Below are positions 29,847 to 52,679 of a stretch of 64,000 bases of DNA, in pieces. The number at the start of each line of letters is the position of its first letter. Positions within the stretch are counted from its first letter, which is position 1. The stretch comes from Thermodesulfobacteriota bacterium. Its GTDB lineage: Bacteria > Desulfobacterota > Desulfarculia > JACQYL01. The position numbers were made by a program, and so were the translations under genes. Below the pieces are notes generated by a model. It did not search any database and was not told where the DNA came from. It saw nothing but the letters and a program-made list of their open reading frames with translations. The stretch covers positions 96,001 to 160,000 of the forward strand of contig CAXXLZ010000002.1 of NCBI GenBank assembly GCA_963675595.2, in the 5' to 3' direction.

Positions 29847-29918
29847 GGAGGGTTGATCGGCAAGATCATGAAGACTCTAAATCTTCACAGCCGGGTTGAA
29901 CTCCCGGACCCTCCTCCA
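29847..29918 (+). tRNA. pylT: tRNA-Pyl (anticodon CUA)
   Basis: Acceptor GGAGGGT/ACCCTCC, 1-nt linker, D arm GATC-GGCAA-GATC, 6-bp anticodon stem TGAAGA/TCTTCA with loop CTCTAAA, 3-nt variable CAG, T arm CCGGG-TTGAACT-CCCGG, T73, CCA; directly before pylSn. Confidence 0.96.
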
Positions 29919-29961: not shown

Positions 29962-30288
29962 ATGGGCATGCCTCAACGAAAAGCACCAGCGGCGACGAAG
30001 AAGGCGAAGAAGACTTTCTTTCGCAAAAGAGAAGACTTGGGAATGGTGCTTCAAAAGGTGAAGCTCTGGCCTTCGCGGAACGGGACCCTGCATGGAGTGC
30101 GCACCATCGTGGTGAAGGGAGCTTTCATTGATTTCACCACCCATTGCGGCCAGAAGCTACGCATCAAGAATTCGAAGAGCAGCAGGGTGTCCCGGTGGCT
30201 CAGGAACAAGTGGTACGTCAGACCTTGTTCCGGGTGTCGGGTCCCTACATGGAAACTTGAGAAATACTCCCAAACGTCTTTTCGATAA
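29962..30288 (+). CDS. pylSn: Pyrrolysyl-tRNA synthetase N-terminal subunit
   Basis: KLWPSRNGTLHG...THCG...NSKSSRVSRWLRNKW...CSGCRVPTWKLEKY signature. Confidence 0.95.
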   Translation: MGMPQRKAPAATKKAKKTFFRKREDLGMVLQKVKLWPSRNGTLHGVRTIVVKGAFIDFTTHCGQKLRIKNSKSSRVSRWLRNKWYVRPCSGCRVPTWKLEKYSQTSFR

Positions 30289-30343
30289 CCGACGAGTTCG
30301 ATCCTTCGCCGATCGATCTCCACGATGGAAGGTGAAAGTGCCC

Positions 30344-31516
30344 ATGACCGGACGAGACAATCGTCTCACAGCTGTTTTGGACGGAGTGCTGCAAGGAGGC
30401 GCCCTATCCCGCCGAGACGCGGAAACCCTGCTTTCCGCTTCAGACCCTCAGGATGTGGACAGAATTACCCAAGCGGCCCGGATCATGAGGGCGCGGCTTT
30501 TCGCCGACTCCGTTTTTCTTTACGGTTTCGTCTATTTTTCGACCTATTGCAGGAATTCCTGTACGTTTTGTTTCTACCGCAGGGGCAACAAGCAAAGCCC
30601 CAGGTACCGAAAGACCGAAACGGAGGTCAAGGACATCGCCCTCGGACTTGCCGCGTCCGGGGTTCATCTGGTGGATTTGACCATGGGTGAGGACCCATGG
30701 ATCTACGAGCGGCAGGATTACGGCGTACTCTACCGGATAGTGGGAGGCATCCGAGACGCCACGTCGGTTCCCCTCATGATTTCGCCCGGAGCCGTGCCCG
30801 ACGAGGTGCTCCGGACCTTGGCGGCTCAAGGTGTGGACTGGCTGGCCCTGTACCAGGAAACCCACAACCGAAGTCTATACGGGAAGCTCAGAGTCGGACA
30901 GAGTTACGACGAACGGGTGGAAAAGCGGAATCTGGGCGCACGGCTGGGAATGCTCGTGGAAGACGGGATTCTGCTGGGCGTGGGAGAATCCGTGCGGGAC
31001 CGGGCGGATTCCATCATGAACATGCGCTCCGGCGGATCGGACCAGGTCCGCGTCATGAGCTTTGTTCCGCAACCGGATACCCCCCTCGCCGATCGACAAA
31101 CGCCTCCCAGGCGACTCGAGCGCCTTTGCATCGCGGTCATGCGCCTCGCCATGCCGGATCGGCTGATCCCGGCTTCTCTGGACGTGGACGGCATCAACGG
31201 GCTGCGGATGCGTCTCGAAGCGGGAGCCAACGTGGTCACTTCCATCATACCGCCCCGAAGTCGCCTCGCGGGAGTTTCCCAGAGCAGTTTGGATATAGAG
31301 CCCGGTCACAGAACCGTGGCGGAGGTACGGAAGATTCTCGACGATATGGGCATGAAAGCGGCTTCCTTGTCTGAGTATGAATCATGGATGAAACAAAGAA
31401 AGCTGTTGAAAACCGGCCGGTCGGAACAAATCCAAATCGGTCTTTCCGCACTTCCCGACACGCACGCCGGCGACGTACCGAGCCATCCCCTCGGTCTGCA
31501 TCACACATATCCTTGA
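30344..31516 (+). CDS. pylB: 3-methylornithine synthase (radical SAM)
   Basis: FLYGFVYFSTYCRNSCTFC, DLTMGEDP, IPASLDVDG, AGANVVTSIIP; start ATG 30344. Confidence 0.93.
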   Translation: MTGRDNRLTAVLDGVLQGGALSRRDAETLLSASDPQDVDRITQAARIMRARLFADSVFLYGFVYFSTYCRNSCTFCFYRRGNKQSPRYRKTETEVKDIALGLAASGVHLVDLTMGEDPWIYERQDYGVLYRIVGGIRDATSVPLMISPGAVPDEVLRTLAAQGVDWLALYQETHNRSLYGKLRVGQSYDERVEKRNLGARLGMLVEDGILLGVGESVRDRADSIMNMRSGGSDQVRVMSFVPQPDTPLADRQTPPRRLERLCIAVMRLAMPDRLIPASLDVDGINGLRMRLEAGANVVTSIIPPRSRLAGVSQSSLDIEPGHRTVAEVRKILDDMGMKAASLSEYESWMKQRKLLKTGRSEQIQIGLSALPDTHAGDVPSHPLGLHHTYP

Positions 31517-31653
31517 GCCCGAAAGCCGTGAGCCCTGAGACCCCTCGGGGCCCGGAGGAACGCCGACGAGGCAAGACGGCACCCCCTTTCGGCGTCGGCG
31601 GAATCGCAGCAACTGCTGATCCAGCCATAACGCAAAACCTGGAGGTAACCTAA

Positions 31654-32655
31654 ATGACAGCCAAAGAACGAGTCATGGCCGTCCTGAACCACGAGAAACC
31701 GGATCAAATGCCCGTTTTTGGGGCAAATTCCACGGTCACCTATGATCAAATGGAAAAGGTATCCGCTTTCTGGCCTAAAGGTCACGAGGACGGCGAGACC
31801 ATGGCCAAGCAGGCCATGGCCGCTTACACCATGCTGGGATTCGATGCGGTCCGGGTCCCTTTCTGCCAGACCTTCGAAGCGGAAGCTTTGGGATGCAAAG
31901 TCAAGTCGGGCGGCGACAAGGGTATTCCCGGCATTGATCATCCCCCGCCGTACAAGCTCGAGGACACCCCGGCCTTCCCCTCGGACTTCCTTTCCAGAGG
32001 GCGGATTCCCGAGTTGCTCAAGGCCGTCCGAATCCTGAAGAAGGAACTCGGCGACGACGTGCCTATTGTCGGCGGGATCATCGGGCCTTTTACCATCACC
32101 GGGTCCCTCATCGACACGGTTCCTTTGTTGAAGGCCACCTTCAAGACACCGGAAAAGATCCGCCCGTTCATGGAAGTGGCGGAAAAAGCGGGCACCGAAC
32201 TGGCAAAAGCTCTTATCGACGCGGGAGCGGACATCATCGCGGTCGAGGATATGACCGCCTCTCCGGAGCTCATCGCTCCCCAGACCTACGGAGATTACGA
32301 GGTCGAATACCAGAGCAGACAGTTCAAGGCCATCTCAGTGCCCAAGATTCTCCACATCTGTGGAAACGTGGACAAGATCGTGCACTGGATGGGCGAGACC
32401 GGTCCGGATGTCCTCAGCCTCGAGCCTAAGGCAAGTGCCAAACTCGCCCGGGAAAAATGTGGACCGGATATGATTCTCATGGGAGGAGTGGACACGGCCA
32501 CCACGCTGTTCATGGAATCGCCCGAGACGGTGAAAAAAGGGTGCGAAGCCTCCATCGCCGACGGAATCCAGATATTGGCTCCCGGATGCGCCGTGGCTCC
32601 GGGAACGCCCCTTGATAACCTGTTGGCCATGGTGGAAGTGGCTCGGAGCCGTTAA
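31654..32655 (+). CDS. mtbA: MtaA/MtbA/CmuA-family methylcobamide:thiol methyltransferase (UroD fold)
   Basis: GFDAVRVPFCQTFEAEALG, Zn motif LHICG and APGC. Confidence 0.85.
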   Translation: MTAKERVMAVLNHEKPDQMPVFGANSTVTYDQMEKVSAFWPKGHEDGETMAKQAMAAYTMLGFDAVRVPFCQTFEAEALGCKVKSGGDKGIPGIDHPPPYKLEDTPAFPSDFLSRGRIPELLKAVRILKKELGDDVPIVGGIIGPFTITGSLIDTVPLLKATFKTPEKIRPFMEVAEKAGTELAKALIDAGADIIAVEDMTASPELIAPQTYGDYEVEYQSRQFKAISVPKILHICGNVDKIVHWMGETGPDVLSLEPKASAKLAREKCGPDMILMGGVDTATTLFMESPETVKKGCEASIADGIQILAPGCAVAPGTPLDNLLAMVEVARSR

Positions 32656-32688
32656 GTTTTCCGGAATCAAGGCATCCGAAAGGCGTTT

Positions 32689-32898
32689 ATGGAAACAACC
32701 AAGGCCTGCACTCGTTGCGGCAATAAACATACGGACGCGGAGAAAGTCGCAGGGAAGCGTTTGTCCTGTACCGAAACCAAAGAGTTTTGGGCCGACATCA
32801 GTAGAAGACATCTCGAGCTTTACGGTCACCGGGCTCATGCCACGACCAACGAAGCCGGAGAATGGATTTGCTGGGAGTGTAAACGCAGGCTTTGCTGA
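32689..32898 (+). CDS. Small Cys-rich protein (CxxC...CxxC)
   Basis: CTRC and CWEC, 69 aa, co-oriented between mtbA and ramA. Confidence 0.55.
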   Translation: METTKACTRCGNKHTDAEKVAGKRLSCTETKEFWADISRRHLELYGHRAHATTNEAGEWICWECKRRLC

Positions 32899-33143
32899 TT
32901 TAAGCAACTCACCATGAAGAACGGATCGGACCCGGGGGAAGCCCTCTCACTTTTCACCACTCGAAAGAAGGGCATTCCTCGGGCGTGATGAATCCGGCAG
33001 TTCATCGAAAATGTCGGATTCTTGCAGGCGGACCCGACCGTCGCACCCATCCGGATGCACCGGGTTCGCCTCTTTTCTTGCGTTTTGTCGCGGAACACCC
33101 TTGCCGAAATGCACTTTCCACCCGTTTCCCATAGGAAGTGATC

Positions 33144-34820
33144 ATGACCCGCATCGGTATTGCGATAGACCTGGGAACCAGCGGCTTCAGAGGACAGGCC
33201 CTGGATTTGGACCGGACCGGCCGTGTGCTCTCCACGGCGGTAACCGCGAGACATCCCCTGCCCGGAGCCAACGTGATGGATCATCTTCATTGCGCTCTCG
33301 AACTTGGAGTCGAGTGGGCGCAACAGGTGATTGTTTTCTCCGTCAACCGAATAGTCGCCGCTCTCGGCATCGATCCCCAACACGTGGTTCGCTTGGCCGT
33401 GTGCGGGAACCCGATCCAGTTGTCGATCTTTCAAGGGATCGAAATCCGAGACCTGGCCTACGCGGGTAAACGAAAACTCGAGGCATTGGGCGTGGTTCCA
33501 CCGGATCGCGACGCCCGGAAGATCAAGGCACGGGAAATCCCGGGGCTGGCGCTTCCGGGTGAGGCGGAGGTGCTCATTCCTCCGGCGGTCCGACACGAGA
33601 TAGGCGCCGACGCTCTAGCCATGATGATTCGGACGGGCATGCTGGAGAAAGACGAAATCGCCATCGCCACGGATTACGGCACGAACGCCGAAATGGCCCT
33701 CGTGGTGAACGGCACGGTCTACACCGGTTCCACCGCCGCCGGGCCGGCCCTGGAAGGCCAACAGATCGAAGATGGATTGCTGGCCCTGCCCGGAGCGATC
33801 TGCGAGGCCTCCTATCTGCGCGGTAACGCAGCTCCAGGCACCCAAGACGACTGCGGTCGCTTCGGAGTCCGGGTTCTGGACGAAGAGATGACGGCTCGCA
33901 CGGGGAGTACGGTCGATCCCTGTTCGGGAGAAACCCTGGAGCGCGGAGACGTGTCGGCCGTGGGCATAACCGGCACCGGGGTCGTTGCGCTCATCAGTGA
34001 GGGCATCAAGAGCGGACTCATCCAACCTCCGAAAATCAAGACCCCCGACGCCGCGATCCATCTGGCGGACGGAGTGAAGTTCTCGGAGAAGGACCTTTTG
34101 GAGGCCGGAAAAGCCATCGGTTCCGTCCGCGCCGGCCATTTCACACTCTGTCAAGAGGCGGGCATCAACCTCGAAGATGTTGAGGCGGCCTACATGTCGG
34201 GAGCCTCCGGTACGTATGTCAATGCCCTCAAAGCCCAACATCTGGGCATGATCCCTCCTGCCGTGAAGAAGATATATCAGGTGGGCAACACCTCCCTGGC
34301 CATGGCCCGAGAGCTGGTCTTGGATGCGGATGCCCTCTGGAAGATGAAGGAGGTCGCCGACGCCCTCAGACAACACCACTGCATGTTCGCCGTTTCCAAG
34401 ACGTTCGAGAAGGTCTATGTGCTTGAATTGTCCGTTTGGTCCGACGGTCTGACCATTGAGCAATACCGGATGTTCCTCAAGAAGTACAAACTCCCCACCC
34501 TTCCGGAAATCTCCGGCTCGGCCGAGGTCGTGAAAACGGAGGAGAAAGATATCGCCGAAGTGGGGGAATTGGGCCTGACAATCCTTACCGACGCGGGCAT
34601 GAAAAGGACTCTCGTATTCAGTGGCTGTGCCGGGGATTCTCTCTGTGTGGCGGAATGTCCGGAAAATGCACTCCGCATCCACGAAGCGGGAGAGGAGTTC
34701 GCCGTCACCATCGATCTCGCCCTCTGCAACGGTATGGCTTGCCGGAGATGCGAAACGATCTGCAACGAGCGGGCCTTTGACTGGGTGCGTCTGATCACCA
34801 TCGGAACCGGCTCTGCGTAA
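33144..34820 (+). CDS. ramA: Methylamine methyltransferase corrinoid reductive activase
   Basis: AIDLGTSGFR, RHPLPGANVMDHL, TDYGTNAEM, GSTAAGPALEG (ASKHA) plus C-terminal ferredoxin-like domain. Confidence 0.93.
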   Translation: MTRIGIAIDLGTSGFRGQALDLDRTGRVLSTAVTARHPLPGANVMDHLHCALELGVEWAQQVIVFSVNRIVAALGIDPQHVVRLAVCGNPIQLSIFQGIEIRDLAYAGKRKLEALGVVPPDRDARKIKAREIPGLALPGEAEVLIPPAVRHEIGADALAMMIRTGMLEKDEIAIATDYGTNAEMALVVNGTVYTGSTAAGPALEGQQIEDGLLALPGAICEASYLRGNAAPGTQDDCGRFGVRVLDEEMTARTGSTVDPCSGETLERGDVSAVGITGTGVVALISEGIKSGLIQPPKIKTPDAAIHLADGVKFSEKDLLEAGKAIGSVRAGHFTLCQEAGINLEDVEAAYMSGASGTYVNALKAQHLGMIPPAVKKIYQVGNTSLAMARELVLDADALWKMKEVADALRQHHCMFAVSKTFEKVYVLELSVWSDGLTIEQYRMFLKKYKLPTLPEISGSAEVVKTEEKDIAEVGELGLTILTDAGMKRTLVFSGCAGDSLCVAECPENALRIHEAGEEFAVTIDLALCNGMACRRCETICNERAFDWVRLITIGTGSA

Positions 34821-49424: not shown

Positions 49425-49778
49425 TTAGTAGCGGGGTCGACCGCCACCGCCGCCGCCTCGTCCGCCTCCGCCGCCTCCGCCGCCTCTCGGACCGCGTCCG
49501 CCGCCACCCCCGCCGTGCCCGCCTCGCGGGGCGTCGGTACGGGGCCGCGCTTCGTTCACGTTGAGAGCCCTACCCTTGACATCCTTACCGTTCAGGCCTT
49601 CGATCGCGGACCGGGCTTCGGCGTCGGAGGGCATTTCCACGAATCCGAATCCTTTAGACTGGCCGGTGTATTTGTCCTTAATGATGGTGGCTGATTCGAC
49701 CTGTCCGAATGACTCGAATGCGTTCCGCAAATCTTCTTCGGTGGCTTGGTACGACAAATTCCCTACGTAAATGTTCAT
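49425..49778 (-). CDS. RRM RNA-binding protein with Gly-rich tail
   Basis: IYVGNL (RNP2), KGFGFVEM (RNP1), VNEARPR. Confidence 0.95.
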   Translation of the reverse strand: MNIYVGNLSYQATEEDLRNAFESFGQVESATIIKDKYTGQSKGFGFVEMPSDAEARSAIEGLNGKDVKGRALNVNEARPRTDAPRGGHGGGGGGRGPRGGGGGGGGRGGGGGGRPRY

Positions 49779-50151
49779 TCCGATGCCCTTTGTCCTTTTG
49801 TAATGAGTTCCGCCCTGCTACCTAACGGGTCGTCCACGCGGTCCCGATTTGGAACCGGCGGGATCCTTCTTTCCCTCGAGCCCCAAAAACGCACTGTTTC
49901 CTTCCCGAGGTTCCCGGCCCCGTTGACGCCGGGAACAGACCAAGCCGCCATCTCGAGGCGAACTTACACGATCCATAGAGGCGAGTATAAGGCTTTTGGT
50001 CACACTTGGCAATTTCTCAGAGCAAGAATTCCGTTATTTAAACGAAGAAAAGATTCTTCCCCGAACAAGCAACGGAGTCTCGAAAAATCGTGGTGAATGC
50101 CGATTCGCCCAAGCCGTGCGACACTGCGCCGCAGAGCGAACCGCTCTCTGT

Positions 50152-50517
50152 TCAGACTCGCCGGTCCCGATAGCGATCCATTTCGGCGGCCAGGGCCCTC
50201 GCCAAGTCCTCGAAACCCTGATCCTCGGCTGTTTTCACGGCTTCCTCCATCGTCGCTTTCCAGTCTTCCCCGTGGTAGCCGGAAGAGAGGGCATGTGCGG
50301 TTTCGTGGATCAACAACACCAGGAGCAACGTTCCCCGGACCCCTTCGAGAACGGCAATCGCGGCTTCTTCCCGGTTTCACGAAGCGGCGGCGCCGTACAT
50401 CCCTTCGAACCTCCGGTAGGTCCAATGATCGAGATCGGTTCGGTCCGGGAAGAATACGTCTCGAACGGTCCGGACGGCGGCCTCGAAAGCGTCCCATCCC
50501 GCCGATTCCTCCGGCAC
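50152..50517 (-). CDS. SprT-like HExxH zinc metalloprotein with in-frame TGA (candidate selenoprotein, or pseudogene)
   Basis: ...GMYGAAAS-[TGA 50379-50377]-NREEAAIAV...LLIHETAHALSSGYHGEDWKATM...RRV-stop 50152; start GTG 50517 or ATG 50607. Confidence 0.7.
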
Positions 50518-50603
50518 GGGGGAGTTCCCTCGGGACGACGCCGAACAAATGCTCGGTTTCGGAGTATCATCAACCCGTCCGGTTCGCCAATCCTTTGCCG
50601 CCT

Positions 50604-51116
50604 TCATTTCAACTCCCTGACCTCCAGAGGGGTTCCGTCATGAGGATCAAAGTTGTAGTCCGGGGGATAGGTGCGGCCGGTTCGGGGATTCACCTTGATG
50701 GTCCCGCCCTCGTGATCCAGGACCACCTGTTCGACTTCTCTCGCAAGGTGTTCCCCGATTTCGGTCTCGCCGGATATCTCGTCGTAATATACATAGTTGA
50801 TTCGCGCCGAATAGGAATCATAGGCATCGAAAAGAGATACGATGTATCCCTCCACTTTGAGGACGGCACCGTCCACCTTCTCCACCGTCAGCTTCTGGAA
50901 CCCCGCCGCGGCAACCTTTTTGACGACTTTCATGGGAATTTGGACGTCTTTTCCACGATAACTGCATCGTAGAACCGGTTGCAGGTTAATGAATTCCCGA
51001 ACCACGATTTTGATTCCATCGTCGGTGATGAAATAACCTCCCATGGCGCCGTAGGCCTGTGTGGCCAAGCTCAGGAAACAAACAAAGAAAAAGGATCGTT
51101 TCATCAGTCCATTCAT
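50604..51116 (-). CDS. Exported hypothetical protein
   Basis: Signal peptide; C-terminal NPRTGRTYPPDYNFDPHDGTPL resembles a Cys-less zinc ribbon. Confidence 0.7.
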   Translation of the reverse strand: MNGLMKRSFFFVCFLSLATQAYGAMGGYFITDDGIKIVVREFINLQPVLRCSYRGKDVQIPMKVVKKVAAAGFQKLTVEKVDGAVLKVEGYIVSLFDAYDSYSARINYVYYDEISGETEIGEHLAREVEQVVLDHEGGTIKVNPRTGRTYPPDYNFDPHDGTPLEVRELK

Positions 51117-51857: not shown

Positions 51858-52679
51858 TCAGGCGAGCAAATCCACCAACGATCCCGTGGACCTGCCTCCG
51901 GCTCCGACGACGCCTCTTTGCGCAACAAGACTCTTACCATACAAGGTTGATCGGTCGGCGGCGGAGGTCCCGCCGCCCGCACGGACGTCCTGCGTTTCCC
52001 CCGTGCCTTGTTGCATGAGCTCCTTTCGAGCTTTGACTTCCTTACGGCTCGCTTTGGCGGCCACCGCACGGTCTTGTGAGGACGGATCCGCGGGAGCCAG
52101 CGCCGCCCTCCGCACTTGTTGCATCTTCGCGATGGTGGCTTCGGGATCGTCCTTCACCTCCGAAGCATCGATACCCACCTCTCCGGCCACCGCGTACATC
52201 TTTCCGTCCGGCCCCCGTTCGAGTTCGAAGTGAGCGCCGGAAGTGACGTATTGTCCGCCCGCCGCTATGTGAGCCTGCTCGTGTGCTCGAACCTTACGGT
52301 CGTCTGCAGCCAGTTCCTTTACTTCCGCCCGCTCCTCCTCCGAAAGCTCGTCCTTCGCGAGCCCTCGAGCGTTTTCACCGGCCTCTTCAACGTCCTCTCC
52401 GTGTTTGCCGTCCGGTGAAGCGTCTTCAGCATTCGATTCCCTGGAACCGGACCCGGAGGACCGCGGACGTTCACCCTCGGCCGACGCTTCCTGCGAGAGC
52501 GTCACCCGATCCTCCGCCACCTCCGTTTCGGCGGGCGCCTTCGCGGGAGAGCTCTCACCCGAATTCTTCAAACGGGCATCAATGGAACGTTCATCGGAAC
52601 CACGGTTGCGAACTTCGGCCGTATCGGGCAACTTTTCCGAGCTGACCAGACTTTGAAGTTGGACGGATTCCATCATCAC
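51858..52679 (-). CDS. SprA/SrpA-related putative metalloprotease
   Basis: [44 protein letters not shown]. Confidence 0.9.

Follow-up and report, generated by a model that had tools for sequence, protein, structure and literature searches.

A small SprT-like metallopeptidase gene on the minus strand of the window, the 64,000-nucleotide stretch of DNA analyzed here, is broken at codon 77 by a single in-frame TGA, which falls exactly on a conserved Cys column of its family. We conclude that this TGA probably stems from a recent TGC-to-TGA nonsense mutation that turned a gene of the SprT-like/minigluzincin type into a young pseudogene. In the sequence of events that we propose, one transversion would have converted the conserved TGC codon of Cys77 to TGA in the lineage of this organism. 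The UGA is most likely read as a stop, and we infer that translation ends there; the product would be only an N-terminal fragment of 76 residues or fewer without the catalytic helix, and the gene would thus be a very young pseudogene. The initial annotation had preferred a new selenoprotein and had named a TGY-to-TGA nonsense mutation as the alternative; it is this alternative that is now better supported, the nearest relative having TGC at the same codon.

The read-through frame (50152..50607, minus strand) encodes a small SprT-like/minigluzincin HExxH protein; it runs from an ATG at 50607 to a TGA at 50154-50152 and comprises 151 codons plus this terminal TGA, with the TGA at codon 77 (50377..50379, read as 50379-50377 on the minus strand) as its only break. 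A gene caller sees the N-terminal ORF of 76 amino acids (50377..50607, minus strand), whose end at 50377 includes the stop. The remaining 74 codons plus stop (50152..50376, minus strand) continue in the same frame, as had been noted at the outset, and carry LLIHETAHAL and HGEDW, with HETAH at 50307-50293, the third His (His112) at 50274-50272, and Trp116; the zincin motif thus reads H101-E102-T-A-H105 plus H112. By codon-usage log odds, this frame is the best of the six in both halves, with +12.7 and +30.0 bits, on a scale on which real 75-codon stretches of the same genome average +20 with a standard deviation of 10. Neither a frameshift nor another internal stop is present, and the family residues downstream of the TGA that are invariant or nearly so are all there. 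Its sole departure from the conserved residues is Ala75, where the homologs have Gly in 87 of 101 cases and Ala in 10. Judging from sequence, the TGA at 50154-50152 is the natural stop; read-through of this second TGA was considered and dropped, as a profile alignment found no real similarity past 50152. The gene lacks a C-terminal domain, like several short homologs.

At its 5′ end, the annotated ATG overlaps (ATGA) the TGA stop of an upstream 170-amino-acid ORF (50604..51116, minus strand), which has no Pfam match and was not found as a conserved partner in the fetched homolog loci. Residues 1 to 40 have no counterpart in the homologs. Across the first 30 codons from the ATG (50515-50607), changes relative to the nearest relative are almost all nonsynonymous, 7 to 1, and codons 5 to 32 contain seven nonsynonymous and one synonymous differing codons. 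The ATG and its overlap may not mark the true start; an in-frame GTG at codon 31 (50515..50517, read as 50517-50515, minus strand), preceded by GAGGG 10 to 14 nucleotides (nt) upstream, is a candidate. A SprA-related family protein (PF12118, 110 bits; 51858-52679, minus strand) is encoded about 1 kb upstream of the candidate, and an RRM_1 RNA-binding protein with a Gly/Arg-rich tail (49425-49778, minus strand) is encoded directly downstream.

An exhaustive HMMER search recovered 105 proteins at E ≤ 1e-3. Two of these are the candidate's own fragments (P0002, the 76-amino-acid N-terminal half, and P0011, its last 32 amino acids); most of the others are proteins of 100 to 230 amino acids that align unbroken from about residue 41 to residue 149, across the TGA. 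A profile built from 37 homologs, with the query left out, also matched the candidate frame across the TGA (109 bits, E 6e-35). Thus, the two halves are one gene. The family consensus, FFPRWD...W...GAxGxCxxxxKTIxI...LLIHEIAHAV...HGxxW...RMEKAA, contains the motifs FFPxWD, GAxGxC, KTIxI, LLIHEIAHAV, and HGxxW. The TGA occupies the position of the C in GAxGxCxxxxKTIxI, in agreement with the G-x-C-x6-I pattern that the initial annotation had named for SprT-like proteins. In a 38-sequence alignment, H101, H105, and W116 never vary, and conservation is at least 90% for E102 and H112.

An AlphaFold model computed from a 38-row alignment is a single confident domain (mean pLDDT, 84.8), with block means of 87 to 98 over residues 41 to 150 and values of 52 to 68 for residues 1 to 40. 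The modeled elements are a helix, strands 63-67, 75-78, and 83-87, the active-site helix at 92-107, and two further helices, and this combination of a sheet with an active-site helix predicts a zincin fold. Foldseek matched the model to proabylysin (4jiu), the SprT domain of SPRTN (6mdx_A), IrrE, selecase, and Wss1. The best structural matches are minigluzincins (proabylysin 4JIU, projannalysin 4JIX, and selecase 4QHF-J), with 4jiu at E 9.6e-4 and a TM score of 0.64 on the target's length. Like the candidate, minigluzincins consist of about 100 to 110 residues with a three-strand sheet and an active-site helix, but they share only 12 to 16% identity with it and no sequence match at E < 0.1 (proabylysin, E 0.69), and the known ones are archaeal. 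A sequence search of the PDB likewise gave only weak hits (best E, 0.096). With the SprT-like family (PF10263), which includes SPRTN (PDB 6MDX), the candidate shares the HExxH helix, the third His, and the G-x-C...I-x-I strand pair before the helix, and the SPRTN SprT domain matches the model at E 2.2e-3 (TM 0.50, rmsd 3.1); the candidate is, however, much smaller, lacks the DNA-binding/Zn-ribbon part, and has an N-terminal FFPxWD helix of its own. Its match to PF10263 covers residues 94 to 126 only and, at 16.5 bits (E 0.0078), is below the gathering cutoff of 25.6, whereas 31 of the 38 aligned family members match PF10263 at E ≤ 0.01 (best, 8.8e-9). The DUF6782 putative metallopeptidase family (PF20573) is matched at E ≤ 0.01 by 15 of the 38 members and by the candidate at E 0.051; with this family and with IrrE/PprI (M78), whose structures appeared in the fold search, the likeness is weak and partial. 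By sequence, the candidate belongs to a sparsely distributed, uncharacterized family of small (about 100 to 230 amino acids) SprT-like/minigluzincin zinc metallopeptidases, for which zinc binding and peptidase activity are predicted.

The distribution of this family is patchy. A word-indexed protein search found no close homologs, and a metagenome scan with a single protein query returned no match. Among 60 relatives searched, there were two weak matches, G028 and G008 (E 0.0017), of which G028 was dropped as a homolog because the match sits in an ORF without HExxH, presumably a Dus-type protein by its resemblance. A phylum sample of 401 genomes (400 others) added one strong homolog (G299, with Cys) and 13 further matches at E 7e-6 to 8e-4 in frames of 267 to 315 amino acids, and in a related class, 15 of the 122 genomes searched had family copies. 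Three of seven examined neighborhoods contain mobile-element genes (D5_N/DUF5906, serine recombinase, and PcfJ). Four of the 23 metagenomic or viral loci (L066 to L069, of which L068 and L069 read alike) have a frame that is cut near HExxH; these cuts, just before or soon after the motif in L066, L067, and L068/L069, may mark decayed copies or assembly errors. Decay elsewhere in the family and the mobile-element neighbors favor the nonsense reading.

The residue replaced by the TGA is Cys in most homologs. Among 101 representative homologous proteins, column 77 is C in 92, A in 5, S in 2, V in 1, and H in 1; none has a TGA, which is weak evidence in a set of this kind since a TGA-bearing copy would be called truncated. 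Copies read directly from DNA gave C in 15, L in 3, and I in 2 (n = 20, from the 122 genomes of the related class and the genome carrying L041), metagenomic and viral loci inspected by eye gave C in 18, A in 2, V in 1, and Y/I in 1 (n = 22), and seven genome loci had Cys, or Y/I in three; no TGA was present in any of these sets. The Cys is therefore replaceable (non-Cys in 9 of 101 proteins and L or I in 5 of 20 DNA-read copies), which again favors a nonsense mutation. A column that tolerates A, S, V, H, L, and I suggests, from sequence, a small residue with a packing role and not a Cys that serves in redox chemistry or as a metal ligand. In the usual zincin topology, strand 75-78 would lie along the cleft's upper rim, and by this analogy, it is plausible that residue 77 lies near the zinc site.

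The TGA itself was seen only in X1 and X3, two samples of one study, both labeled as the candidate's organism, and the 76-amino-acid product P0002 is a singleton cluster from one contig in a collection of 15 billion proteins. The initial annotation had named a TGA private to this assembly as a refutation of selenocysteine (Sec), and the TGA is essentially that. The possibility that the TGA is a sequencing or assembly error and that the true codon is TGC or TGT is very improbable: TGA and TGC are one base apart, but the contigs of X1 and of X3 (depth, 14.6; piece 50228-50688) agree with the window letter for letter at and around codon 77.

Only one close relative was found, in run X4, which comes from a different study and carries a different organism label (organism B), at a depth of 2. 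Its three pieces (49900-50197, 50231-50479, and 50481-50857) differ from the window by 12, 18, and 28 letters, with no indels, giving 58 differences over 924 bases or about 94% identity. At 50377, X4 has G for T on the plus strand, and codon 77 is accordingly TGC, Cys. The closest relative thus has a sense codon one step away from the TGA, and neither X4 nor any other family copy examined has a UGA at this position; both observations favor the nonsense reading.

In the core of the candidate, the codons that differ from X4 are 63, 71, 75, 76, 77, 83, 85, and 86 (nonsynonymous) and 66, 90, 95, 100, and 148 (synonymous), among the differences listed (9, 14, and 17 of the 12, 18, and 28 in the three pieces, with up to about 7 more in the C-terminal half). 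The nonsynonymous differences sit at columns that vary in the family, with the exception of codon 75, where the candidate has Ala (10 of 101 homologs) and X4 has Gly (87 of 101). When the eight nonsynonymous differences at codons 63 to 86 were polarized by the family columns, every candidate state was found to occur in the family, so that these codons give no sign of decay or of adaptation. Past codon 86, all four visible differences are synonymous. This pattern mildly favors continued selection on the downstream half, but it is weakened by the unlisted differences and because selection in the X4 lineage, or in this lineage before a recent mutation, would give the same result. Ten of the listed differences are bunched in 47 nt around the TGA (50350-50396, codons 71 to 86), with few elsewhere in that piece; this cluster could reflect a variable loop, a recombination patch, or a template-switch event.

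Further decay, in the form of frameshifts, extra stops, or lost conserved residues, was not seen in the candidate, and this is one of several points against a nonsense mutation. A random stop would rarely land on codon 77: 14 codons lie a single base change away from TGA, this being one of them, and it offers one of the 54 single-base changes that would create a stop of any kind. Elsewhere the gene is undamaged, its read-through product gives a confident single-domain model, the differences past codon 86 are synonymous, and the genome is rich in selenoproteins and has the full machinery. These features, together with the agreement of X1 and X3 on the TGA, speak for a newly born selenoprotein, in which the same TGC-to-TGA change would be decoded as Sec by SelB through an imperfect hairpin 24 to 48 nt downstream (loop +31 to +38), yielding a full-length metallopeptidase with Sec in the strand before the active-site helix. 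We consider this outcome unlikely, if by no means far-fetched. The two hypotheses share the TGC-to-TGA event and differ only in decoding by SelB.

The genome can make selenoproteins. It encodes a tRNA-Sec (77 bits; ARAGORN anticodon tca), selA (621 bits), selB (404 bits), and a Sec-type selD (386 bits) that itself has one in-frame TGA, so that all the genes for which the initial annotation had advised a search are there. For a reference set, we compared in-frame TGA sites flanked on either side by a coding signal with the ORFs of the same genome. Ten genes were taken as known selenoprotein genes (nine with Cys in paralogs, plus selD), and a hairpin filter over +15..+42 gave seven more candidates. 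Of 16 sent to Pfam, 13 have a domain across the TGA (URO-D, FlpD, two FdhA, two HdrA-like, HesB-like, AhpC, CMD, DsrE, UGSC, Peripla_BP_2, and OsmC; the HesB-like case is just below its Pfam cutoff), and three (c876, c972, and c841) have none; with selD, this makes 14 verified selenoprotein genes. Among their products are a URO-D-family protein (...FAPGU...), a Peripla_BP_2 binding protein (...GGSHU...), a UGSC-family protein, and an OsmC-like protein. The SECIS elements of these selenoprotein genes, of which there are at least 14 (genome G000; loci L070-L076, L079-L084, and L018), are very uniform. All 14 verified genes have a perfect stem of 6 to 9 bp with a GG loop of 3 to 7 nt, mostly GGU, that starts at +18 to +26.

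The candidate has no SECIS of this type in +15..+42, and the absence favors a stop. The stem CGUUCUC/GGGAACG proposed by the initial annotation does exist: the hairpin (50329..50353, minus strand) pairs CGUUCUC at 50353-50347 with GGGAACG at 50335-50329 over 7 bp. The initial annotation had taken it as compatible with a bacterial SECIS; both position and loop size are outside those of the 14 verified elements. The loop, GAAGGGGUCCG (50346-50336), has 11 nt and begins 31 nt past the UGA. A GGU, the motif seen most often in the loops of the genome's SECIS elements, is present at +36..+38 and counts for Sec, but it too lies outside the +18..+26 range. The free energy of the 7-bp hairpin is -7.3 kcal/mol, or -7.1 kcal/mol with a 2-bp top around the GGU, and the 81 nt that follow the UGA fold no better than expected by chance (z = -0.36; 68 of 200 shuffles fold as well). 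Rfam over 50100-50650 returned nothing beyond a chance snoRNA match (E 1.5).

More permissive definitions are kinder to the hairpin. A filter tuned to the genome accepts 9 of the 10 known genes, 6.8% of 2,185 ordinary TGA stops, and 8.6% of 4,386 coding controls and rejects the candidate. A relaxed, bSECIS-like filter (stem ≥7 bp, loop of 3 to 14 nt with G first, +16..+37) again accepts 9 of 10 known genes and passes the candidate, a result in favor of Sec, together with 8.3% of the ordinary stops and 6.7% of the coding controls. The bacterial SECIS consensus, as given in the legend to Fig. 2 of PMC13188914, has a loop of 3 to 9 nt, an upper stem of 4 to 16 bp, G in the first two loop positions, a spacing of 16 to 37 nt, and a minimum free energy (MFE) of -7.5 kcal/mol or lower. 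The candidate is a borderline case by these rules. The 11-nt loop of the 7-bp stem exceeds this legend's limit. The MFE fold, a structure with internal loops in which a 3-bp top stem carries a GAAG loop at +31, is G-first at a spacing of 30 nt and reaches -10.4 kcal/mol locally; the region may therefore pass the generic rules of that legend on a lenient reading, a point that counts against the nonsense reading.

A hairpin at this place does not depend on the TGA. The Cys version in X4 forms a local stem of 8 bp that closes a 4-nt loop (-10.8 kcal/mol), slightly further downstream, and since this Cys-bearing sequence folds as well or better, such hairpins evidently occur at the locus without Sec. 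Five of the X4 differences, at 50350-50360, lie in or beside the 5′ arm of the hairpin; the idea that substitutions there built the hairpin for the TGA form was rejected because the Cys form folds at least equally well. That the hairpin is independent of the TGA favors a nonsense mutation.

Formate dehydrogenase, FdhA, shows what an established case in the same genome looks like. FdhA has Sec at a metal site and, as in the candidate, its UGA is on a Cys column (...HCARxU...), but it has a canonical SECIS, with the GG loop at +19, and a UGA common to many species, both of which the candidate lacks. The text of PMC1976440 that deals with this question treats single TGA sequences as "candidates" and accepts a new family only when two or more sequences carry the TGA; by that standard, the gene is below the bar for a new selenoprotein. 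Nor did the literature searched offer a precedent. A search on selenoproteins with SprT found no Sec-containing SprT protein, as judged by the listing. The main texts of the 2026 review of the prokaryotic selenoproteome (PMC13188914), of BSepDB (PMC13326102), and of deep-Sep (PMC12013277), whose supplementary tables could list such a family, contain none of the words metalloprotease, peptidase, and SprT; the one mention of zinc in the review concerns an efflux transporter. As far as the literature was searched, a Sec-bearing zincin would be new.

A rough weighing brings these lines together. The position of the TGA on the Cys column gives a factor of about 14 to 54 for Sec, and the intact downstream half adds a small factor on the same side. 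A SECIS outside the range of 14 of 14 of the genome's own genes gives a factor of 10 or more for a stop, and the lack of another Sec form in the family or sister lineage gives 10 or more again, these two factors being partly correlated. What stood of the selenoprotein proposal is that the two halves are one gene, that the column is Cys, and that the machinery is complete; a SECIS of the genome's own type and a TGA shared with the family copies examined were not found.

Whether the genome contains comparable nonsense mutations bears on the same question, and here the evidence is against the nonsense reading: no TGA nonsense pseudogene was clearly demonstrated elsewhere in the genome among 20 non-Cys TGA cases sent to Pfam. 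All 20, in which the TGA aligned to W, R, or G in paralogs, matched no Pfam family and resembled antisense shadow frames. Four TGA/non-Cys, four TAA, and three TAG cases remained after a stricter frame filter. One TAA case (C2, minus strand), with Gln in a 76%-identical paralog, looks from its sequence like a real nonsense pseudogene. Genome-wide in G000, a strict true-frame filter gave 63 TGA-, 38 TAG-, and 35 TAA-interrupted ORF pairs.

The UGA might also be a stop that still permits some useful product. UGA is the leakiest of the stop codons, and here, where an A follows it, a near-cognate tRNA might partly read it to give a little full-length enzyme with Trp, Cys, or Arg at position 77; alternatively, the halves could be made separately, with a restart at the TTG at 50328, where a 58-amino-acid ORF begins. 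The frame is intact on both sides of the UGA, as either version would have it. A product restarted at 50328, however, would have its N terminus within the active-site helix and would lack all three modeled strands, and we found no evidence of programmed read-through. We regard leaky reading or functional truncation as improbable, and a recent nonsense mutation remains our preferred explanation.

If the UGA is only a stop, the gene is a young pseudogene of an ordinary kind, from an accessory family, and it warns that in a genome that uses Sec, a TGA at a conserved Cys position is insufficient for calling a selenoprotein. If Sec is inserted after all, selenoproteins would extend to the zincin metallopeptidases, with this protein as the first Sec-containing zincin peptidase. 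It would then be a selenoprotein caught at birth, whose sister lineage keeps the Cys form and a stronger hairpin at the same place; together with the TGC sister, it would form a natural before-and-after pair for the conversion of a Cys codon and a chance hairpin into a Sec site, and it would bear on the distance from the UGA at which a bacterial SECIS can still function.

The window also holds signs of a second expanded codon. A tRNA-Pyl gene (anticodon cta) at 29847-29918 on the plus strand adjoins radical-SAM, URO-D-family methyltransferase-like, and RACo corrinoid activase genes (ORFs 30128-34820), and some of the TAG-interrupted ORF pairs could be pyrrolysine sites. From these genes, the organism probably uses pyrrolysine besides selenocysteine.
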